In this document: positions 5,443 to 50,100 of the stretch, in pieces
Layout of the letters: each line of letters starts with the position of its first letter
Numbering within the stretch: the first letter of the stretch is position 1
The notes under the pieces: generated by a model
What the model saw: the letters and a program-made list of their open reading frames with translations, nothing else
Database searches by the model: none
Told to the model about the DNA's origin: nothing
Made by a program: the position numbers and the translations under genes
Assembly (NCBI RefSeq): GCF_051903065.1
Contig: NZ_CP178439.1
DNA from: Escherichia coli
GTDB taxonomy: Bacteria; Pseudomonadota; Gammaproteobacteria; Enterobacterales; Enterobacteriaceae
DNA length: 64,000 nucleotides
Strand: one strand, 5' to 3'

Positions 5443-6108
5443 CTAACGACTACCACTTTTAAGTATGTATTGAGCCAGTTTTATATTCAGGCACACCATA
5501 TTGCACTCTAGCTCTTTCATCATTCTTGAAGAACTCTTAATTAAGTATTCTTCAAGTGGGCCAGCATATGCCCCTGATGTCACGATCGTTAGTTGCGTAA
5601 GAGGATGAGTCAAACTCTCAATGCCCTTCAGGATGTCATTCTGGACAGCAGCAATATAAACAGGCGAAGCCGCAATCAAATATTCATCATTCGGGCTGGA
5701 CTGCATTAACTGGCTTATAGTTGCGCAACGGTTATGCTTACCTAGTGATTTTGTGATGGCTTTCCACCAGAGATCATGCCTGAATGGTACTTGATGAAAT
5801 GTCGCCTCGTAAGAGGGCACCCGATCTCGACTATTTAAAAACCCCATCCCGGCAGAGATTATCCACAACTCCAGATTTCTGGTTGAGTTTAAAATTTCCT
5901 TTGCCGTAGACCAGTGATTACCTGAATACAAGGACAATGCCGGTACCGCCTGATTACTTCTGGCGTCGTCTACAATGTTACTCCAGGCATATGCTGCGTC
6001 GTCCGGGGTTTGTTTTGGATCTATGTCCAATGTCGGCCAGACGTGGCCCTGATGATTCTTGCCCTTTGTACAGGAAGTGATTAAGTGTACTGAGCGTTCA
6101 GAGAACAT
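5443..6108 (-). CDS. Hypothetical protein (221 aa)
   Basis: Six-frame ORF in AT-rich backbone; no family recognised. Confidence 0.5.
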   Translation of the reverse strand: MFSERSVHLITSCTKGKNHQGHVWPTLDIDPKQTPDDAAYAWSNIVDDARSNQAVPALSLYSGNHWSTAKEILNSTRNLELWIISAGMGFLNSRDRVPSYEATFHQVPFRHDLWWKAITKSLGKHNRCATISQLMQSSPNDEYLIAASPVYIAAVQNDILKGIESLTHPLTQLTIVTSGAYAGPLEEYLIKSSSRMMKELECNMVCLNIKLAQYILKSGSR

Positions 6109-6165
6109 TATCTTCCTTACATACCCATAGAACAGCTTTCTAAGAACGGTGGGCTCGCCTGAAAA

Positions 6166-6546
6166 TTACAAATCAGCCCCTTTCACGGCATCATTTTGAT
6201 TCTTCGCGTCTGCCCCCAGTAAGATGACCGGTTTTCTGCATGACAGTGTTATTCCTAACAAACGCAACACAAAACCACGCCAGCCAGAGCAAATTTTTTC
6301 ATTTGCTGCGTAAAGCCTATTGTTTTCTCTTTTAAGCTTCGCCCACTCGTTACAGAGGGTAACATCATCAAGCGCTGTTATATGCTTCGCCTCACCTTCG
6401 ACGATAACGGTATGGATACCGTATGCTGTAAATCTCATACTATTTTCCAGAACCCAGTTGCGGTATTCGTCGAGTCCACCTTCGGAACCGGTAGCTCTGC
6501 GCCACATTTCAATTTGCTTGTGTGATGGGTCAAGTGTACTTGTCAT
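6166..6546 (-). CDS. Hypothetical protein (126 aa)
   Basis: ORF upstream of and co-oriented with 5443..6108; divergent from the 7189 operon. Confidence 0.5.
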   Translation of the reverse strand: MTSTLDPSHKQIEMWRRATGSEGGLDEYRNWVLENSMRFTAYGIHTVIVEGEAKHITALDDVTLCNEWAKLKRENNRLYAANEKICSGWRGFVLRLLGITLSCRKPVILLGADAKNQNDAVKGADL

Positions 6547-8007: not shown

Positions 8008-9209
8008 TGATTGAAAATGATAAAGAAAAAAGCCTGAACGATGCTACCCCGCCAGAGGTGCAGAATGACATCCGCAGCGAATCCACTGAAAAATCAAAGG
8101 AAATGGGTCGTTCAAGGTACTCATCTATCGCGATGATCGATTACTTCAATGCAATCGAACGTCTGTGCAAAGAGAAAGAAATTAACCCGGAAAATATCGA
8201 TCTGAGCTTCAAAGTTCACTGGCTCAGAAACGCTGTTGGCGGCTCGTTTGCAAGGTCACAGGAGATGTTCGCGGAGTACCAGAAGTATGTTAAAGAGGTT
8301 CCTGAAGAGGCCCGTTACCTGGATATACCCGATGAGGTAAAGGTTGCACTCGGCGATATTATCTCGTACATCACCTGGCACTACCGTAGAAGCTATACCG
8401 CAATACAGAATGATAGTGTTAAAAAAGCTGAAGCACGTAGCATGCAGCTGGAGGAGGAGGTAACGCAGCTGTTACAGCGGCTTGAGCAAAGCGCTACCGA
8501 TATGGATGAGCTGAAACTTGAGAATCAGGCACTACAGGGTCGATTAGAGATCCGGGACAGTACCGTCAAGGAGTTAGAAACAAGGCTGAATGTTGCCGAA
8601 GCAGAACTCGAAACCTGCCATCACCAGTTAGATAGCACACGGCATGAATTGAGCCTCGCACAGCAGTCAAATGACTCACTCTCCCAGCAACTGGCTGAAC
8701 GTAAAACAGAGATCGCTGGTCACCTTGAATATCAAAAAAAGCTGAACGAAGAGATCAACACGCAGCGTTCTGATAACGCCGGTCTTTCCAGACAATGCGA
8801 CCAGTTAAGTCAGACTGTGTCAGATACAAAGGCAGAGAGGGACAGGTTTGAACAGGAATTGATTGCTGCACAGAACCTTTGTACTGAGCTGAAAAGTGCA
8901 CTGTCCGGGAAAGAGGGTGACCTGGTGGCGGTGAATGCCGAGCTTACTGAACTCCATAAACTAAACGAGTCGCTGAGCGCCGACCTGAATAAAGTAACTT
9001 TGGTCAGCCAGGGCTATGAAGCGGAAGTGGCTGAACAAAGCAATGAACTCAAAACGCTCCAGGCCAAAGTAATGAAGCTGGAAGCTACCCTGGAGGCGGA
9101 GAAAACAATCTCAGAATCCCTAAAAGGCACCATTGATACATTAACTGGTGCAATGGCAGGGGGAGGTACTGGAAAGTCAAAACAGCCGCGTAGCAGAAAA
9201 ACATCATGA
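8004..9209 (+). CDS. Coiled-coil protein (401 aa), KfrA-like architecture
   Basis: Globular N-terminus then ~300 aa of heptad-like E/Q/L-rich sequence; translationally coupled to upstream gene. Confidence 0.55.
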   Translation: MMIENDKEKSLNDATPPEVQNDIRSESTEKSKEMGRSRYSSIAMIDYFNAIERLCKEKEINPENIDLSFKVHWLRNAVGGSFARSQEMFAEYQKYVKEVPEEARYLDIPDEVKVALGDIISYITWHYRRSYTAIQNDSVKKAEARSMQLEEEVTQLLQRLEQSATDMDELKLENQALQGRLEIRDSTVKELETRLNVAEAELETCHHQLDSTRHELSLAQQSNDSLSQQLAERKTEIAGHLEYQKKLNEEINTQRSDNAGLSRQCDQLSQTVSDTKAERDRFEQELIAAQNLCTELKSALSGKEGDLVAVNAELTELHKLNESLSADLNKVTLVSQGYEAEVAEQSNELKTLQAKVMKLEATLEAEKTISESLKGTIDTLTGAMAGGGTGKSKQPRSRKTS

Positions 9210-9272
9210 TAAATGAAGCCAGGTTGATACACTTCTCTGCATCCCCTGGCACATAAGAACTTCTGCGGACAT

Positions 9273-9476
9273 TCAGCCCGTCCGCAGGAGTTTTCGTCCT
9301 TCAGTCAACAAATGCACTACCTTTTTTGAGTCTCCACTTTCCAGAGCAGAAAACACGTTACCGATTCTACCAACAGCTTGTATCTGAGTGATAACCCCAG
9401 TCTTGTAATCATCTAGGATCCCTGACAGGAAAGCGTTCAGTTTTGTCTGTTCGCTTAGCGAAAGCATGTAGGACAT
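9273..9476 (-). CDS. Small hypothetical protein (67 aa)
   Basis: ORF immediately downstream of 9489..10808 on the same strand. Confidence 0.3.
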   Translation of the reverse strand: MSYMLSLSEQTKLNAFLSGILDDYKTGVITQIQAVGRIGNVFSALESGDSKKVVHLLTEGRKLLRTG

Positions 9477-9488
9477 TTTTTCTCCATT

Positions 9489-10808
9489 TTAAGCAGGTGT
9501 GTCAGTTGAAAGAGGTTTGCGTGATTCTGGAAAATGAGGCAGCACCATAGTTTCAGATGCTGTGGTCGCATCCCAGTGCCACCATCCATAAGGCCCATAT
9601 TCACGGTTGTAATAATCTTTTTTGAGTTGCTTTCGGGCCAGATAAGCAGGAGTGGCCATACCAAATACTTCCATCGGGAACGGCTTATCGCTTTTTGTGT
9701 CGAGCAGGTAGAAGTCAGGGAACACCTCACTAATACTCGCATCATAACGCATGGGCTTAACGTACTGCCGGTGCTCTGCATCCAGCTTTTCTGCAACAAC
9801 CGCCTCATAGGAGGAGTCCAGAGGTATCCAGTTCTCGCTAACGTGCATCAGCACAATTTGATGAGCTCTTACAGAAGGGCCTCTGCCGGTTACCGCAGCT
9901 GGTGACGTCAACGCAAAGACAACTATTTTCGCCCCGGATTTCCATGCTGCGTACTCCGATGAAAATCGTTTCTTTACGCTATCCCAATGGACTTCTGAAT
10001 TGAAAAAAATCAGCGGTAGCCCCCCAAAATTCCGCAGGGGTAAAAATTTAAGTGGCTTCTCATGCTTTTCAGCATCGTAGCGAGGTAAAACTGACAGGAG
10101 CATGAGACGTTTATCACTCATCGCCTGTGATGAAAGACGCTGAATTTGCGACTGAGCGACAGGTTGTTTCGGGTCAGGTACACCAATGAATAAATGGTCA
10201 CCTATGCAGGCTCTGCCGGTACGAATTTGTTTAGCGGTTTCAAGCAGACGATACCGTACCAGTGAATCGTTACGTTTCCCTGCCATTTTCGGGTACCAGA
10301 CATTCAGACCAGACTCTGTCCACAAAAGACTAAGCAAGCCCAGGAGGGTCATTGAGGCCTGACCTCCTTCTGGTCGCTGAACATGGGGCAGGGGAGGCAC
10401 TTCTGATTTTTCAGGAGGATCTTTCTCTGTCATACCGATACCGAGCCTTACAGCCATATCACCTTCGGTTGTAATCCGGACCACACCACTCGCATATCCT
10501 TTCAGGCCGGTATGCCGGGCATCAAGGGAGAAGAATACACAGGAAGGATCATGCTCAATGCCCGTGTTAGCGGCTTTGACGAGAATAAAGGCATCACCGT
10601 TCGGTAAAGCACGAACATAAAGTCGCTTTTCTCCTTTTCCACGACATCCGCAGGTGATGACTGATTTTTGACCTGAGGTGTGGTGTGCCTTTTTAAGAGC
10701 CGACTGCCACCCTTTAGCAAACTCATCCTGCGTTTGAAAGTCAGGTGAATACCTTTTGACGTTTGGATCGTCGTCGTAAGCAATCATCACTGCGAATTTT
10801 TGGCTCAT
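9489..10808 (-). CDS. Hypothetical protein (439 aa), conserved-plasmid-protein appearance
   Basis: Long ORF with AGGAGA RBS 6 nt upstream; co-oriented downstream of the Dcm-like gene. Confidence 0.6.
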   Translation of the reverse strand: MSQKFAVMIAYDDDPNVKRYSPDFQTQDEFAKGWQSALKKAHHTSGQKSVITCGCRGKGEKRLYVRALPNGDAFILVKAANTGIEHDPSCVFFSLDARHTGLKGYASGVVRITTEGDMAVRLGIGMTEKDPPEKSEVPPLPHVQRPEGGQASMTLLGLLSLLWTESGLNVWYPKMAGKRNDSLVRYRLLETAKQIRTGRACIGDHLFIGVPDPKQPVAQSQIQRLSSQAMSDKRLMLLSVLPRYDAEKHEKPLKFLPLRNFGGLPLIFFNSEVHWDSVKKRFSSEYAAWKSGAKIVVFALTSPAAVTGRGPSVRAHQIVLMHVSENWIPLDSSYEAVVAEKLDAEHRQYVKPMRYDASISEVFPDFYLLDTKSDKPFPMEVFGMATPAYLARKQLKKDYYNREYGPYGWWHWDATTASETMVLPHFPESRKPLSTDTPA

Positions 10809-20789: not shown

Positions 20790-21368
20790 ATATCAAGCGA
20801 CTTCTCCTATCCCCTGGGAACACATCAATCTCACCGGAGAATATCGCTGGCCAAAGCCTTAGCGTAGGATTCCGCCCCTTCCCGCAAACGACCCCTGGAA
20901 GCCCCGTAGCGACGCGGAGAGGGGCGAGACAAGCCAAGGGCGCAGGCTCGATGCGCAGCACGACATAGCCGGTTCTCGCAAGGACGAGAATTTCCCTGCG
21001 GTGCCCCTCAAGTGTCAATGAAAGTTTCCAACGCGAGCCATTCGCGAGAGCCTTGAGTCCACGCTAGATCTATCTCATCTGCGCAAGGCAGAACGTGAAG
21101 ACGGCCGCCCTGGACCTCGCCCGCGAGCGCCAGGCGCACGAGGCCGGCGCGCGGACCCGCGCCACGGCCCACGAGCGGACGCCGCAGCAGGAGCGCCAGA
21201 AGGCCGCCAGAGAGGCCGAGCGCGGCCGTGAGGCTTGGACGCTAGGGCAGGGCATGAAAAAGCCCGTAGCGGGCTGCTACGGGCGTCTGACGCGGTGGAA
21301 AGGGGGAGGGGATGTTGTCTACATGGCTCTGCTGTAGTGAGTGGGTTGCGCTCCGGCAGCGGTCCTGA

Positions 21369-24704: not shown

Positions 24705-25589
24705 TTGGCGATTCGTCGCCGGCGGCGCATGTTCATACTCTTCGCCGAGCGAAAAGTTGGGGAACAGCACGGGCCGGCCGCGCAAGGCGTGCTGGCAGCC
24801 GTGCAGACCCTGCGTGAGATGAACGCCGACAACCTGCGCAAGGTGCCGGCCGATGCACCCACGGCCTTCATCAAGCCGCGCTGGAAGCCGCTGGTGATCA
24901 CCCCGGAAGGCCTCGACCGGAAATTCTACGAAATCTGCGCCCTGTCCGAGCTGAAGAACGCCCTGCGCTCCGGCGACATCTGGGTCAAGGGCTCGCGGCA
25001 GTTCCGCGACTTCGACGACTACCTGCTGCCGGCCGAGAAGTTCGCCGCACTCAAGCGCGAGCAGGCCCTGCCCCTGGCGATCAACCCGAACAGCGACCAG
25101 TACCTGGAAGAGCGTTTGCAGCTGCTGGACGAGCAGTTGGCCACCGTCACCCGCCTGGCCAAGGACAACGAGCTGCCCGATGCCATCCTCACCGAGTCAG
25201 GGCTGAAAATCACCCCGCTGGATGCGGCGGTGCCGGATCGGGCGCAGGCGCTGATCGACCAAACCAGCCAGTTACTGCCGCGCATCAAGATCACCGAACT
25301 GCTGATGGACGTGGACGACTGGACGGGCTTCAGCCGCCACTTCACCCACTTGAAGGACGGGGCCGAGGCCAAAGACAGGACGTTGCTGCTGTCCGCAATC
25401 CTCGGTGATGCGATCAACCTCGGGCTGACCAAGATGGCCGAGTCGAGCCCCGGCCTGACCTACGCCAAGCTGTCCTGGCTGCAAGCCTGGCACATCCGCG
25501 ACGAAACCTATTCGGCGGCCTTGGCCGAGCTGGTCAACCACCAGTATCGCCACGCCTTTGCCGCCCACTGGGGCGACGGCACGACCTCA
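24705..25589 (+). pseudogene. tnpA: Tn3-family (Tn1721-type) tnpA internal fragment, 3'-truncated by IS26
   Basis: 348-aa ORF with Tn3-family TnpA central-region similarity, ends at the IS26 boundary 25590. Confidence 0.7.
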
Positions 25590-26409
25590 GGCACTGTTGC
25601 AAAGTTAGCGATGAGGCAGCCTTTTGTCTTATTCAAAGGCCTTACATTTCAAAAACTCTGCTTACCAGGCGCATTTCGCCCAGGGGATCACCATAATAAA
25701 ATGCTGAGGCCTGGCCTTTGCGTAGTGCACGCATCACCTCAATACCTTTGATGGTGGCGTAAGCCGTCTTCATGGATTTAAATCCCAGCGTGGCGTTGAT
25801 TATCCGTTTCAGTTTGCCATGATCGCATTCAATCACGTTGTTCCGGTACTTAATCTGTCGGTGTTCAACGTCAGACGGGCACCGGCCTTCGCGTTTGAGC
25901 AGAGCAAGCGCGCGACCATAGGCGGGCGCTTTATCCGTGTTGATGAATCGCGGGATCTGCCACTTCTTCACGTTGTTGAGGATTTTACCCAGAAACCGGT
26001 ATGCAGCTTTGCTGTTACGACGGGAGGAGAGATAAAAATCGACAGTGCGGCCCCGGCTGTCGACGGCCCGGTACAGATACGCCCAGCGGCCATTGACCTT
26101 CACGTAGGTTTCATCCATGTGCCACGGGCAAAGATCGGAAGGGTTACGCCAGTACCAGCGCAGCCGTTTTTCCATTTCAGGCGCATAACGCTGAACCCAG
26201 CGGTAAATCGTGGAGTGATCGACATTCACTCCGCGTTCAGCCAGCATCTCCTGCAGCTCACGGTAACTGATGCCGTATTTGCAGTACCAGCGTACGGCCC
26301 ACAGAATGATGTCACGCTGAAAATGCCGGCCTTTGAATGGGTTCATGTGCAGCTCCATCAGCAAAAGGGGATGATAAGTTTATCACCACCGACTATTTGC
26401 AACAGTGCC
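25590..26409 (-). mobile_element. tnpA: IS26 copy 3, transposase CDS 25642..26346, Asn at residue 184
   Basis: IRs at both ends; inverted relative to copy 2. Confidence 0.95.
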
Positions 26410-26566
26410 CTTCATCATTATGAATATGAAAAAGCCGAATGCGGCGACTACCACATTTATCCCCGGGGCTATGGACGCAGCAACTTTGCAGGGCGCAATC
26501 GAAAAAGCTCGCGGGGCCTAAAGTTACTTTCACTTTTGATGAGTACGGCCATGCCGGTCATGGCCG

Positions 26567-27826
26567 CTACGCTTTTACAACGAGTAATTCATCCCAGCGG
26601 GTCGTATATCTCGGTGATAGCATGGCCTGTTTCATACGAAAATCCTGTTGAATGCCTTCCCCCAGCAAAAACAGAGCTCCGCGCTTTTCTTTATTGAACC
26701 GGTCCATAACTTTCATCAGTGCCTGACTGCCAGGCCTGGCCGGGCGCTCATCAAACAGGCTGAGTTGCTCTGTGCCGTCAGTCATAGCGGAGAGCATTAC
26801 CCCAGCTTTCGCATACGCTATCCCGGGTTTGTAAATGCGGTTCAGGATGGTCATGGCTGCATCAACCAGATCGCGGGTGTCCTGTGTAGCGGTAAGCGGC
26901 TCGATACCACAATTGCTGTAGCGGTTTTCACCTTGCGCATAATTGCTGCTCTGAATGAAGACTGTGATTTGACGGGTCCACGAGCCATCCTTGCGCAGCT
27001 GCTCTGCCGCCCGGGCGGTAAAAAATGAAACTGCCTCATGTAGCTTGCCTATCTCATTAAGGCGCTGACCAAAACTTCTGGAAACGATAATCTGTTGCCG
27101 GACAGGAGGGGATTCATGCAGCCGGAAACATGGTTCGCCATGCAGTTCCCGCCAGGTACGCTCGATTTCAACGCCAAAGCTTTTACGTAAAAAGCGAACG
27201 TCGCTATTATAAAAATCACCGGCAGTGATGATCCCGAAAGCCGACAGGCGTTCACTGATCTTTTGACCAATACCCCATATTTCTCTGGTACTGATAAGGC
27301 CCAGGAGCTTCCTGATCCTGGCCTGATCAGTCAAAACTACAACCCCGCCTGTAGCTGCCCATCGTTTGCTCGCATAGGTGCATAATTTAGCCAGGGTTTT
27401 GGTGCTTGAACACCCCACACCACAGGTAAGGGACAGATTATGAAGAAGTGTACTTCTGATCAACCGGCCGTAATCTTCATAATCTATTATCTTGTTCATG
27501 TTTTTCAATAACATGAAATTTTCATCTATGCTATATCGACTCGATTGAGGCGCGAAGCTTTCCAGCGTTTCATGGAAGCGATTTGAGTAGTCTTCATACA
27601 AAGTAAAGTTAGAGCTCCGGACTTCGATCTGGTGTTGCTGAATCAAATCCCTGCACTTAAAAATTGGGGTCCCACGCTTAATACCAACGCTTTTAGCCAG
27701 TTTATTCATTGCAATGACGGACGAATCGTTATTGCTGGCTATGATGAGCGGCTTTTTTGCCAGCTTGGGATCCATCGCACACTCAAATGCCGCATAGGCC
27801 CCGTTAATATCAACGTGCATGTACAT
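26567..27826 (-). CDS. umuC: Y-family translesion DNA polymerase subunit, UmuC/MucB/ImpB-like
   Basis: 419-aa protein, MYMHVDINGAYAAFE N-terminus typical of UmuC; overlaps the upstream umuD-like gene. Confidence 0.8.
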   Translation of the reverse strand: MYMHVDINGAYAAFECAMDPKLAKKPLIIASNNDSSVIAMNKLAKSVGIKRGTPIFKCRDLIQQHQIEVRSSNFTLYEDYSNRFHETLESFAPQSSRYSIDENFMLLKNMNKIIDYEDYGRLIRSTLLHNLSLTCGVGCSSTKTLAKLCTYASKRWAATGGVVVLTDQARIRKLLGLISTREIWGIGQKISERLSAFGIITAGDFYNSDVRFLRKSFGVEIERTWRELHGEPCFRLHESPPVRQQIIVSRSFGQRLNEIGKLHEAVSFFTARAAEQLRKDGSWTRQITVFIQSSNYAQGENRYSNCGIEPLTATQDTRDLVDAAMTILNRIYKPGIAYAKAGVMLSAMTDGTEQLSLFDERPARPGSQALMKVMDRFNKEKRGALFLLGEGIQQDFRMKQAMLSPRYTTRWDELLVVKA

Positions 27827-46031: not shown

Positions 46032-46851
46032 GGCACTGTTGCAAATAGTCGGTGGTGATAAACTTATCATCCCCTTTTGCTGATGGAGCTGCACATGAAC
46101 CCATTCAAAGGCCGGCATTTTCAGCGTGACATCATTCTGTGGGCCGTACGCTGGTACTGCAAATACGGCATCAGTTACCGTGAGCTGCAGGAGATGCTGG
46201 CTGAACGCGGAGTGAATGTCGATCACTCCACGATTTACCGCTGGGTTCAGCGTTATGCGCCTGAAATGGAAAAACGGCTGCGCTGGTACTGGCGTAACCC
46301 TTCCGATCTTTGCCCGTGGCACATGGATGAAACCTACGTGAAGGTCAATGGCCGCTGGGCGTATCTGTACCGGGCCGTCGACAGCCGGGGCCGCACTGTC
46401 GATTTTTATCTCTCCTCCCGTCGTAACAGCAAAGCTGCATACCGGTTTCTGGGTAAAATCCTCAACAACGTGAAGAAGTGGCAGATCCCGCGATTCATCA
46501 ACACGGATAAAGCGCCCGCCTATGGTCGCGCGCTTGCTCTGCTCAAACGCGAAGGCCGGTGCCCGTCTGACGTTGAACACCGACAGATTAAGTACCGGAA
46601 CAACGTGATTGAATGCGATCATGGCAAACTGAAACGGATAATCGGCGCCACGCTGGGATTTAAATCCATGAAGACGGCTTACGCCACCATCAAAGGTATT
46701 GAGGTGATGCGTGCACTACGCAAAGGCCAGGCCTCAGCATTTTATTATGGTGATCCCCTGGGCGAAATGCGCCTGGTAAGCAGAGTTTTTGAAATGTAAG
46801 GCCTTTGAATAAGACAAAAGGCTGCCTCATCGCTAACTTTGCAACAGTGCC
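46032..46851 (+). mobile_element. tnpA: IS26 copy 8, transposase CDS 46095..46799, Gly at residue 184
   Basis: Both IRs present; flanks do not match. Confidence 0.95.
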
Positions 46852-47050
46852 GCGCGACGAGCAGCAGCACCAGGAGCAGAAGCACGTCGAGAAAAAGCAA
46901 CAGCAGATCGAGCAGCGCCCACGGCGGGCCGCTCGCATCGGATAAGTCGAAAAATCCGGCTAAAGTGGCCGAGCTGCACATCAGGCCGCGCGGTTTTCCT
47001 CCCTGATCGCCGGCGCGGTTTCTTCCTCCCTGAACCGCATGCAGACTTGC

Positions 47051-47080
47051 CGCCTCGGACACCCCGAGGCGGTTTTTTTT
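47051..47080 (+). terminator. Rho-independent terminator
   Basis: GCCTCGG-ACACC-CCGAGGC hairpin followed by GGTTTTTTTT. Confidence 0.5.
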
Positions 47081-47092
47081 CGCCTCGCTCGA

Positions 47093-47306
47093 GCATCGCC
47101 GCATCCGACGATGCCGAGACGACCAGGCCGCGCACGTCGAGCTGCAGCATCGCCATTGCCGACGATGGCACCAGGTCGCCGGCGGTGGCCACCGACCTCG
47201 AGCTCGCATCGCCACATCCGACGATGCGCGCCGGCGTCGACCATCGCCAGGTCTGACGATGGCGGCCGCCCTGCCCTGGATCTCGCATCGCCATTTCTGG
47301 CGATGA
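47093..47306. repeat. Five imperfect 22-bp palindromic repeats (CATCGCC-N6-GACGATG type); candidate res/accessory recombination or iteron-like sites
   Basis: Copies at 47093, 47147, 47206, 47241, 47285 with spacings 54/59/35/44 bp, upstream of the resolvase gene. Confidence 0.5.
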
Positions 47307-47430
47307 GATCCACGGAGCGGCCATTTAGACCCGCCAATAACGACCCGGCCAAGATAAATCGCATGACGGCCTTTTTGGCCGGGGGTAGCATGACCGGACA
47401 CTTTGCGTATGCCCAAAGGAGCCCGCAAGT

Positions 47431-48168
47431 ATGCGCAGGACGAAGCCAGTAGCCGCGCCGATGGTGGCGCGGGTCTATCTGCGCGTCAGCACCGACGCGC
47501 AGGACTTGGAACGCCAAGAGGCGATCACTACGGCCGCGAAGGCCGCCGGCTACTACGTCGCCGGCATCTACCGTGAGAAGGCATCCGGCGCACGCGCCGA
47601 CCGGCCTGAGCTGCTGCGCATGATCGGCGACCTACAGCCCGGCGAGGTGGTCATTGCCGAGAAGATCGACCGCATCAGCCGCCTACCTTTGCCCGAGGCC
47701 GAGCGCCTGGTGGCCTCGATACAGGCCAAAGGCGCACGCCTGGCCGTCCCTGGCGTGGTCGATCTATCCGACCTGGCGGCCGAGGCCCAGGGCGTCGCCA
47801 AGATCGTGCTGGAAGCCGTGCAGATCATGCTTTTTCGCCTGGCCTTGCAGATGGCCCGCGACGACTACGAGGACAGGCGCGAACGCCAGCGCCAAGGCAT
47901 TGAGTTGGCCCGCCAGGCCGGGCGGTACAAGGGCCGCCGTGCTGATCCGAAGCGCCGCGCCCAAGTTGTCGCGCTGCGCAAGTCCGGCTACAGCATCAAC
48001 AAGACCGCCGAGCTGGCCGGGTACAGTGCGGCCCAGGTGAAACGGATATGGGCCGAGGTCAGCCAGGCCGAAGCGAAGCAGCACGGCGCGTTCGTGGAGG
48101 ACGCATTGACGGAAGCCGATGCCCTGGCCGCTGTCGGCCAGGATGAGCGCCAGGAGGAAAGGGCATGA
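47431..48168 (+). CDS. Serine recombinase/resolvase
   Basis: N-terminal catalytic motif VYLRVSTDAQDLERQ and C-terminal HTH; GC-rich. Confidence 0.8.
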   Translation: MRRTKPVAAPMVARVYLRVSTDAQDLERQEAITTAAKAAGYYVAGIYREKASGARADRPELLRMIGDLQPGEVVIAEKIDRISRLPLPEAERLVASIQAKGARLAVPGVVDLSDLAAEAQGVAKIVLEAVQIMLFRLALQMARDDYEDRRERQRQGIELARQAGRYKGRRADPKRRAQVVALRKSGYSINKTAELAGYSAAQVKRIWAEVSQAEAKQHGAFVEDALTEADALAAVGQDERQEERA

Positions 48169-48482
48169 AGAAGCCGAACCAAGACGACGAGCCGTTTTTC
48201 ATCACCGAGGAGATTGCGGCCGAAATGATCGCCGGCGGCTATGAGTTCGAGCTGCCGCCCATTCCTTGCACCATCCGCCTACGCGACGTGCTGGAGCGCA
48301 TGACCGATGCTGAGCTAGCATTGCAGCCGGGCGAGATCGCCGACCAGGAGCGTGAACGCTGCCGGCGCAAGCCGTGTTCAACCTCATGATCTGGTCATGG
48401 TATTTTTCATGGCACTGAGCCTGATAGTTCTTGCAAATTGTTGTCACTAAAGGGTTTTGTGTGCTTGTTTACAATCGAGTGG

Positions 48483-50100
48483 GAGTGACGGGCACTGGCT
48501 GGCAATGTCTAGCAACGGCAGGCATTTCGGCTGAGGGTAAAAGAACTTTCCGCTAAGCGATAGACTGTATGTAAACACAGTATTGCAAGGACGCGGAACA
48601 TGCCTCATGTGGCGGCCAGGACGGCCAGCCGGGATCGGGATACTGGTCGTTACCAGAGCCACCGACCCGAGCAAACCCTTCTCTATCAGATCGTTGACGA
48701 GTATTACCCGGCATTCGCTGCGCTTATGGCAGAGCAGGGAAAGGAATTGCCGGGCTATGTGCAACGGGAATTTGAAGAATTTCTCCAATGCGGGCGGCTG
48801 GAGCATGGCTTTCTACGGGTTCGCTGCGAGTCTTGCCACGCCGAGCACCTGGTCGCTTTCAGCTGTAAGCGTCGCGGTTTCTGCCCGAGCTGTGGGGCGC
48901 GGCGGATGGCCGAAAGTGCCGCCTTGCTGGTTGATGAAGTACTGCCTGAACAACCCATGCGTCAGTGGGTGTTGAGCTTCCCGTTTCAGCTGCGTTTCCT
49001 GTTTGCCAGCCGGCCCGAGATCATGGGGTGGGTGCTGGGCATCGTTTACCGCGTCATTGCCACGCACCTGGTCAAGAAAGCGGGCCATACCCACCAAGTG
49101 GCCAAGACGGGCGCGGTCACCCTGATCCAGCGTTTTGGATCGGCGCTCAATCTGAATGTTCACTTCCACATGCTGTTTCTCGACGGTGTGTATGTCGAGC
49201 AATCCCACGGCTCAGCGCGTTTCCGCTGGGTCAAGGCGCCGACCAGCCCAGAGCTCACCCAGCTGACGCACACCATCGCCCACCGGGTGGGTCGCTATCT
49301 GGAACGGCAAGGCCTGCTGGAACGGGATGTCGAAAACAGCTATCTGGCCTCGGATGCGGTGGATGACGACCCGATGACACCCCTGCTGGGGCACTCGATC
49401 ACTTACCGTATCGCTGTCGGTTCACAGGCGGGGCGAAAGGTGTTCACTTTGCAAACTCTGCCGACCAGTGGTGATCCGTTCGGTGACGGGATTGGCAAGG
49501 TAGCCGGGTCCAGCCTGCACGCCGGCGTGGCGGCCAGGGCCGATGAACGCAAGAAGCTCGAACGGCTGTGCCGGTACATCAGCCGCCCGGCGGTATCCGA
49601 GAAGCGGCTGTCGTTAACACGAGGCGGCAACGTGCGCTACCAGCTCAAGACGCCGTACCGGGACGGCACCACGCACGTCATTTTCGAACCATTGGATTTC
49701 ATTGCAAGGCTGGCCGCCCTGGTACCGAAGCCCAGAGTCAACCTAACCCGCTTCCACGGGGTGTTCGCACCCAACAGTCGGCACCGGGCGTTGGTCACGC
49801 CGGCAAAACGGGGCAGGGGCAACAAGGTCAGGGTGGCTGATGAACCGGCAACACCAGCACAACGGCGAGCGTCGATGACATGGGCGCAACGGCTCAAGCG
49901 TGTTTTCAATATCGACATCGAGACCTGCAGCGGCTGCGGCGGCGCCATGAAAGTCATCGCCTGCATTGAAGACCCTATAGTGATCAAGCAGATCCTTGAT
50001 CACCTGAAGCACAAAGCCGAAACCAGCGGGACCAGGGCGTTACCCGAAAGCCGGGCGCCACCGGCTGAGCTGCTCCTGGGTCTGTTTGACTGACGAGCCT
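48483..50100 (+). mobile_element. ISCR2 (IS91-like rolling-circle element), transposase CDS 48600..50093; element boundaries approximate
   Basis: 497-aa IS91-family transposase; a second partial copy of the first ~300 bp at 52767..53072 defines the 5' boundary. Confidence 0.75.

Follow-up and report, generated by a model that had tools for sequence, protein, structure and literature searches.

What is the serine resolvase unit that lies between IS26 and ISCR2-floR at positions 46852-48481 of a window of 64,000 nucleotides of Escherichia coli DNA (contig NZ_CP178439.1), and what are the five palindromes in front of its resolvase gene? A preliminary description of the window, made from the letters alone, offered two readings of the palindromes, as a multimer-resolution (res) or accessory site array or as the iterons of a captured small replicon, and suggested that the unit may have been mobilised with ISCR2. 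The comparisons described here lead to another answer. The unit is very probably a composite relic, in which two known elements, an IncP-1β plasmid and GIsul2, were joined by site-specific recombination at res. The left part, from 46852 to ~47409, would be of IncP-1β origin and carry the end of traC, a terminator, five inverted repeats, res subsites III and II and the left half of subsite I; the right part, from ~47410 to 48481, would come from GIsul2 and carry the right half of subsite I, the resolvase gene resG, the small gene orf225 and a spacer (gene names resG and orf225 as in PMC6737455; the name resG is also carried by an unrelated gene of SGI1).

BLAST comparison with the fetched loci for a source element of the unit identified two sources. 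On the left is an IncP-1β-type locus (L037), itself 98% identical to pJP4, R772 and the plasmids of the pAKD series, whose annotation names the genes on either side traC and parA; it matches 46852-47417 at 97.35% and then stops. On the right are two GIsul2 loci, one from Limnobacter humi (L016) and one from the flavobacterium Paenimyroides viscosum (L017), which match 47402-48400 at 99.9% and 47402-49000 at 99.9-100%. A three-way alignment narrows the change of parent to a few base pairs, the window keeping to IncP-1β sequence as far as C47406 and to GIsul2 sequence from G47411 onwards, so that 46852-47406 is 97% IncP-1β traC-parA spacer and 47411-48481 is 99.9% GIsul2. Leftwards of 47407 the identity to L017, taken over 20 nt at a time, is only 35-60%. 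In pBS64 the left half found here is joined to the IncP-1β right half.

The native setting of the right-hand part is also known. According to PMC6737455, GIsul2 runs int, transfer genes, resG, ISCR2, glmM and sul2 (compare Nigro and Hall 2011), and arsBCHR are listed among its cargo (PMC5704250). In L017 and in a relative, L018, the resolvase gene is preceded by arsH-arsR and followed by orf225, with ISCR2 next in L017, and the arsH-arsR/resolvase arrangement is present in Acinetobacter baumannii ATCC 17978 as well. The window shares with these loci the order resG-orf225-ISCR2, at 99.9-100% identity to loci with arsH-arsR, and its right part is identical in this sense to the GIsul2 segment between the ars genes and CR2/ISCR2. 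What it lacks is the native GIsul2 sequence upstream of resG, namely arsR and GIsul2-type res subsites III and II; in place of these two subsites and of the left half of site I, the window has IncP-1β sequence. Because everything left of 47407 is IncP-1β, the unit is what remains of a GIsul2, with foreign DNA on its left, and not an intact one. It also differs on the far side, ISCR2 being followed by floR in the window but by glmM-sul2 in native GIsul2. As resG-orf225-ISCR2 is the original GIsul2 arrangement, plain linkage suffices to explain the neighbourhood, and the co-mobilisation by ISCR2 raised in the preliminary description, though possible, is not needed.

Two further observations concern the GIsul2 loci themselves. 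The ISCR2 segment and its neighbours are 99.9-100% identical between L016, a betaproteobacterial chromosome contig, and L017, a Bacteroidota scaffold, and arsH-arsR are present only in L017. The identity of the two suggests either very recent transfer or contamination of an assembly.

How were the two parents joined? The uninterrupted identity between them at the junction is only 4 bp (GTAT), too few for homologous recombination, and these 4 bp occupy the dyad centre of the predicted crossover site; the hybrid is for these reasons attributed to exchange by a resolvase. The resolvases of Tn3 and γδ make a 2-bp staggered cut at the dyad centre of site I. The alternative is that illegitimate or short-homology recombination fell within res by chance. 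The parents are alike over ~16 bp at the junction (TTTGnGTATnCCCAAA), and no reciprocal product was found; but the uninterrupted identity is far below the requirement of RecA-dependent recombination, the 4 bp are the exact dyad centre of a conserved 30-bp palindrome beside a serine resolvase gene, and the central AT is kept in both parents. A chance junction is on this evidence distinctly unlikely. If resolvase exchange is the preferred explanation, the existence of the hybrid implies that ResG, the IncP-1β ParA or each of them acted on both versions of site I.

The res in which the junction lies was delimited by comparison. Thirty-one distinct uninterrupted regions upstream of homologues of ~70-100% identity were stacked without gaps on a GTA/TRC core (the slash marks the centre), which is present in all 31. 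Three conserved blocks stand out. The block from -15 to +15 is a 30-bp palindrome with the consensus gGCcaAtTT.cGTA/TACCCAaa.tgGCCA, that from -63 to -30 is a 34-bp inverted repeat, GGCcaAtTTA...ttaTTGGCC, and a third of ~27 bp extends from about -91 to -65. In the window these blocks predict the res of this resolvase at 47319-47424, within the 110 bp between the palindromes and resG, with three subsites, of which subsite I is IncP-1β type in its left half and GIsul2 type in its right half. The preliminary description was thus right in expecting a res site beside a resolvase gene, but it saw that site in the palindromes and did not flag the stretch at 47319-47424.

With subsites III, II and I of 27, 34 and 30 bp, fixed in their spacing, this region has the look of a Tn3-type three-subsite res. 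In Tn3 and γδ, subsites I, II and III are 28, 34 and 25 bp. The window shares with these systems a small serine recombinase whose catalytic domain is N-terminal and whose helix-turn-helix (HTH) is C-terminal, three predicted dimer-binding subsites at fixed spacing and a central AT in the crossover site. The similarity in sequence is, however, distant, and the half-site motif differs. The predicted crossover subsite is the one nearest to the resolvase gene here but the farthest from it in Tn3 and γδ, and the centre-to-centre distances are ~46 and 31 bp as against 53 and 34 bp in γδ. With respect to the res of the IncP-1β plasmids (resIncPβ), subsites III, II and half of I are the IncP-1β ones, whereas the resolvase gene is not.

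These features suggest how the site would work and how the hybrid may have arisen. ResG dimers would bind the three subsites, and two copies of res would synapse; strand exchange would then take place at the central AT of site I, A47409/T47410, resolving multimers or cointegrates. Between sites II and I lies a conserved TAnnnT, here TAGCAT, which is possibly the -10 box of the resolvase promoter; a σ70 promoter scan of 46852-48600 gave no site above threshold. ResG bound to sites II and I would probably repress its own weak promoter between them. Sequence comparison points to a single exchange between an IncP-1β res and a GIsul2 res as the origin of the hybrid, and IS26 would later have removed the remainder of the IncP-1β plasmid.

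Transposons of the Tn402/Tn5053 group provide a separate view of the same region. The literature describes them as targeting res sites served by a cognate resolvase and inserting in res site II, with the parA-res of IncP plasmids as a preferred target. Their 25-bp terminal repeat (GTGCAGCCGTCTTCTGAAAACGACA, or its IRt variant) adjoins res regions at many of the loci compared, and in nine contexts it ends 52-59 bp from the centre of site I, which is inside site II. The plasmid pVFN3 carries a Tn402-like element of ~1.0 kb at the position equivalent to 47353-47357, flanked by a 5-bp duplication of GATAA, in a unit otherwise identical to that of the window, and pBS64 has a Tn402-like insertion at the matching GATAA. 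The insertions of these res hunters agree with the assignment of site II and support it independently. The element in pVFN3 (pVFN3-blaOXA-193K, 8507-9530) contains only a gene for a YafQ-family toxin and one for a 188-aa TniR/TnpR-like recombinase (WP_003159185.1); in pNECK1 the same recombinase gene immediately precedes the resolvase homologue.

If res is elsewhere, what are the palindromes? The five copies of the preliminary description were all recovered: CATCGCC-N6-GRCGATG occurs five times at 47094-47305 and nowhere else in the window, as against 0.06 copies expected from shuffled sequence. Each is 20 bp with 7-bp arms, or nnGCATCGCC-N6-GRCGATGCnn in an extended reading, and they start 54, 59, 35 and 44 bp apart. 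A first lead came from weak DNA matches downstream of traC in pDCA-1 and downstream of trfA in pRSB223. The window proved to be colinear with the traC-parA spacer of pBP136, and also with pDCA-1, through the terminator, the palindromes and a conserved stretch up to the start of parA, and traC and parA of pBP136 match the window's gene stub and resolvase gene in order and orientation. The array of L037 has the identical 54/59/35/44 spacing. A 59-bp block that contains copy 3 is present in plasmids of the L037 type (IncP-1β1) and absent from pBP136.

The motif is not confined to that spacer. In pBP136, a plasmid free of accessory genes, clusters occur between the ends of traM and kfrC (18-168), at klcB-korC (6080-6216), downstream of trfA (9271-9468), between upf30.5 and upf31.0 (25191-25254) and in the traC-parA spacer (26990-27144), and further clusters are present in L004, L006, L008, L037 and L041. 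This corresponds to an inverted-repeat family first reported from R751 (Thorsted 1998), which bioRxiv 10.1101/2024.02.05.579024 describes as inverted CAGCATCG of unknown function. The same work proposes that Upf31, a Dam-like repressor, binds all copies, and reports that Upf31 represses a promoter carrying a repeat of the family. The window's palindromes are built on the same (CA)GCATCG that is clustered in IncP-1β intergenic regions, and they are orthologous to the traC-parA cluster (97.35% identity to L037 over 566 bp). On these comparisons they are best regarded as the traC-parA copy of a dispersed IncP-1β inverted-repeat family and not as an array specific to parA. With that family they share core motif, location and the five-copy spacing of L037, but the array is detached from its native surroundings, without upf31, a β-type parA or the other clusters.

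The two readings offered by the preliminary description can be set against this distribution. That the palindromes are res or accessory sites of the adjacent resolvase draws on their position directly upstream of its gene, on the constraint on their arms and on their lying inside a hot spot for transposon insertion in the traC-parA region of IncP-1β plasmids. Yet two or more copies are found at only 6 of 80 homologous resolvase loci, all of them IncP-1-type or related contigs; pBP136 has clusters far from parA, and exchange among them would delete essential backbone; 20-bp sites with 7-bp arms do not resemble the GGCCAA-type half-sites kept beside all members of the resolvase family; and the palindromes come from a different parent than resG, native GIsul2 having none upstream of that gene. 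Comparison already largely refutes this reading, which is very improbable. Still less credible, indeed hardly to be entertained, is that they belong to a captured small replicon as its iterons or origin. In favour of this are their repetition at irregular spacing, a sister cluster situated between trfA and oriV in IncP-1β plasmids and a pair of copies downstream of repA in pNECK1. Against it, they are palindromes and not direct repeats; a rep gene, an AT-rich stretch and a DnaA box are all missing from their vicinity in the window; and the orthologous region, the traC-parA spacer, is not where the origin of IncP-1 lies.

A third possibility concerns the native role of the family: the palindromes could act as nucleic-acid hairpins, in attenuation, in stabilisation of mRNA 3' ends or in structures of the transferred strand, and not as operators for Upf31. 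The clusters do lie at the 3' ends of operons (traC, trfA, kfrC, upf30.5), on either strand the region folds much more stably than its shuffled versions (z -4.8 and -5.1), and position 6 of the arms varies as C-G, T-G or T-A. Such z-scores, however, would be given by any palindrome array, so that folding cannot separate a hairpin from a protein-binding role; moreover, the sense strand of traC has a C-A mismatch in four of the five copies, the nearly invariant arm sequence fits recognition by a protein, and Upf31 does repress a promoter with a repeat of this family. Hairpins are thus an unlikely explanation, though one with some claim to attention. The role proposed in print is that of an operator for Upf31. 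Between the window and pBP136 the arms are identical at 55 of 56 positions, whereas the loops and the DNA between copies are 83-88% identical, and this better conservation indicates that the palindromes are functional or under selection in their native plasmids. No homologue of Upf31 was found in the 64-kb window, which makes the palindromes probably functionless passengers here; such orphan copies could titrate Upf31. The co-occurrence of palindromes and upf31 among the fetched loci comes from loci that are not phylogenetically independent.

Several points weigh against the account given so far. The reciprocal junction, with GIsul2 on the left and IncP-1β on the right, was not found in the plasmid collection. 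Binding by ResG, the place of cleavage and any activity of the hybrid res are predictions from comparison. Sites II and III of the hybrid have GGCCAA half-sites where native GIsul2 has GGCGCA or GAGCTCA, and with IncP-1β-type half-sites at these positions ResG may work poorly on the hybrid. As to the palindromes, the constraint on their arms means that they may keep some activity in their present context, and binding of Upf31 to them is a published proposal and putative.

Further observations on the repeats concern their range and their neighbours. CATCGYC-N6-GRCGATG also occurs ~1.2-1.4 kb upstream of a resolvase gene in contigs of Ottowia, Xenophilus and Accumulibacter (L028, L029 and L046) and in pNECK1 at 8356-8419; within the stretches fetched from these four loci there is no Upf31 gene, and their IncP-1β status was not shown. 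The family may thus be wider than 'IncP-1β specific'. IS1071 (end GGGGTCTCCTCG...) has inserted inside copy 5 in pDCA-1 (~6182, equivalent to window ~47300) and just before copy 1 in pSREG01 (~6240, equivalent to ~47091). These are two independent insertions only, and they fit an old suggestion that the repeats mark a transposon hot spot.

The resolvase and the small open reading frame (ORF) behind it were correctly recognised at the outset. ResG has a resolvase catalytic domain (PF00239, E 4.2e-21, residues 15-166) and an HTH_7 domain at residues 172-209 (PF02796, E 1.6e-5) that scores just over the gathering cut-off. R18-V19-S20-T21, D57-R58, E60 and D80-R81-I82-S83-R84 are invariant across eight members of the family, Ser20 being the catalytic serine, and matches in the PDB are to Sin/bin3, γδ, Tn3 and Gin (E 6e-8 to 7e-6). 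With a ratio of nonsynonymous to synonymous substitution rates (dN/dS) of 0.155 against L018, the resolvase looks intact and under purifying selection, and the comparative evidence provides it with a predicted adjacent res of several subsites and a palindromic crossover site. A tblastn search with ResG found IncP-1β ParA at 77% identity, the pNECK1 homologue at 87%, homologues on Xanthomonas and Pseudomonas plasmids near 70% and on Acinetobacter plasmids at 56%, and a scan of reference genomes added 80 further resolvase loci at 66-100%.

Overall, ResG is 74-77% identical to IncP-1β ParA, and the recognition helices are nearly alike (SAAQVKRIW in ResG, SVSQVKRVW in ParA), which makes cross-recognition between the two plausible. 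The two proteins differ at their ends, ResG lacking the ~69-aa N-terminal extension annotated for ParA in pBP136 and having a C-terminal tail of ~30 aa, and the loci differ behind the gene, where orf225 takes the place of the convergent upf31. The ParA extension (pBP136 26012-26863; also L037, L035 and L045) sits between the res/start region and the catalytic domain and is absent from ResG and most of the family, and a Tn402-type inverted-repeat end falls within it in both pBS64 and L045. The true start of IncP-1β parA may lie downstream of the annotated one.

The start of orf225 overlaps the stop of resG as ATGA, as the preliminary description had it. Its product has no match in Pfam or NCBIfam. 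Homologues follow the resolvase gene in L018 (86%), L019 (39%, E 1e-9) and L033, and those in the matching position share an EPFFITE motif; dN/dS is ~0.32, from only 13 differences. This lends weak support to orf225 as a real gene. The coordinates of these and the other features are collected in Table 1.

Table 1. Features of the IS26-to-ISCR2 unit and its borders (positions in the window; subsites of res and the -10 box are predictions)
Feature	Position	Strand	Details
IS26 right terminal inverted repeat	46838-46851	+	TTTGCAACAGTGCC; left boundary; sequence read
traC 3' end (IncP-1β DNA primase)	46852-46945	+	31 codons and stop, truncated by IS26
Intrinsic traC terminator	47049-47080	+	10-bp GC-rich stem, then T8 run
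IncP-1β inverted repeat, copy 1	47094-47113		CATCGCC GCATCC GACGATG; orthologue in pBP136, pDCA-1 and L037
IncP-1β inverted repeat, copy 2	47148-47167		CAGCATCG on its left flank, as cited in the Upf31 paper
IncP-1β inverted repeat, copy 3	47207-47226		within the 59-bp block
IncP-1β inverted repeat, copy 4	47242-47261		
IncP-1β inverted repeat, copy 5	47286-47305		perfect arms; extended stem GGATCTCGCATCGCC...GGCGATGAGATCC
res subsite III	47319-47345	+	27 bp, GGCCATTTAGA...AATAACGACC; IncP-1β type
res subsite II	47347-47380	+	34 bp, GGCCAAGATAA-N13-CTTTTTGGCC; IncP-1β type
Tn402/Tn5053 insertion hot spot	47353-47357		GATAA, in res subsite II
Conserved TAnnnT (TAGCAT)	47386-47391	+	between sites II and I; conserved TA...T columns; possible -10 box
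res subsite I (crossover)	47395-47424	+	30-bp imperfect palindrome CGGACACTTTGCGTA/TGCCCAAAGGAGCCC
Recombinant junction	47407-47410		GTAT; three-way alignment, sliding identity, BLAST end points
resG	47431-48168	+	GIsul2 small serine resolvase, 245 aa; Pfam, conserved residues, 100% in L016/L017
orf225	48165-48389	+	74 aa; start overlaps resG stop (ATGA)
GIsul2 spacer, orf225 to ISCR2	48390-48481	+	AT-rich; L018 homologue 89% similar up to 48488
ISCR2 (ISVsa3) left end and transposase gene	48482-50093	+	transposase gene 48600-50093; right boundary

At the left border the IS26 transposase is annotated directly upstream of the unit in identical plasmid records. The fragment cut by IS26 and ended by a terminator, likewise noted at the outset, is a 31-codon stub with its stop codon at 46943-46945. 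Its sequence agrees fully (100%) with the last part of a 418-aa TraC-like ORF in pSREG01 and is 97% identical to L037, the equivalent being annotated traC in pJP4 and R772; it has no match in Pfam. An initial guess that it was trbL of GIsul2 was dropped, as pDCA-1, pSREG01 and pBP136 show traC at this place. The terminator is kept downstream of traC in pBP136 and pDCA-1. RefSeq annotates a 46-aa 'hypothetical protein' (WP_001044210.1, 46805-46945) that starts in the IS26 end and reads into the stub, and this is an artefact of the IS26/ΔtraC fusion; the minus-strand ORFs of 163, 178 and 227 aa that span the palindromes were treated as artefacts of GC-rich sequence. At the right border the unit does adjoin ISCR2, but not through immediate contact with the small ORF: ISCR2 begins only at 48482, from where a second copy of ISCR2 in pVFN3 starts to match, and L018, a relative that lacks ISCR2, remains homologous to the window up to 48488.

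Elsewhere in the window, 20945-21021 belongs to an 86-bp stretch 77% identical to 9177-9262 of pBP136, the gap between annotated toxin-antitoxin genes and trfA. Within it, GCCCCTCAAGTGTCA matches the reverse complement of the IncP-1 oriV iteron, TGACACTTGAGGGGC. This appears to be a second, unrelated IncP remnant.

Every component of the unit is thus a known element, and the mapped hybrid junction together with the res model may be the only new point. No description of the hybrid was found in the literature searched, a search that did not take in key Hall-laboratory work on GIsul2 and ARI-B. That the junction both preserves a past resolvase-catalysed exchange of an IncP-1β plasmid with GIsul2 and was previously unreported is possible but somewhat doubtful.

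The hybrid is far from rare. Comparison of the 1,549-bp segment with plasmid records gave matches of at least 99% identity in 2,084 of them, and coverage of at least 80% of its length in 1,630. The hosts are mostly plasmids of Klebsiella, Escherichia and Salmonella, and the typical order is IS26, the unit, ISCR2 and floR. The junction region, 47250-47600, occurs in 434 of 5,426 complete E. coli genomes (8%). The native GIsul2 arrangement was found in only 26 plasmid records as against ~1,630 with the hybrid, which is the dominant form in the collections searched.

For annotation, the stretch from IS26 to ISCR2, found in thousands of resistance plasmids and usually labelled as a 'recombinase family protein' and hypothetical proteins, can be relabelled as ΔtraC(IncP-1β), IncP-1β inverted repeats, hybrid res, resG and orf225. 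For mechanism, the comparison would define a three-subsite res for a widespread but little-studied family of resolvases, place the crossover within 4 bp and explain why Tn402/Tn5053 transposons repeatedly land ~56 bp upstream of it. For evolution, recombination through res would once have joined a copy of GIsul2 to an IncP-1β plasmid, a route for the spread of resistance regions that does not depend on IS26 or ISCR2, and the hybrid may still be proficient in recombination with incoming IncP-1β plasmids. If this is true, the junction would be a natural base-pair map of the crossover for the ParA(IncP-1β)/ResG family, and related res sites would serve as portals through which ISCR2-linked resistance regions pass between replicons.

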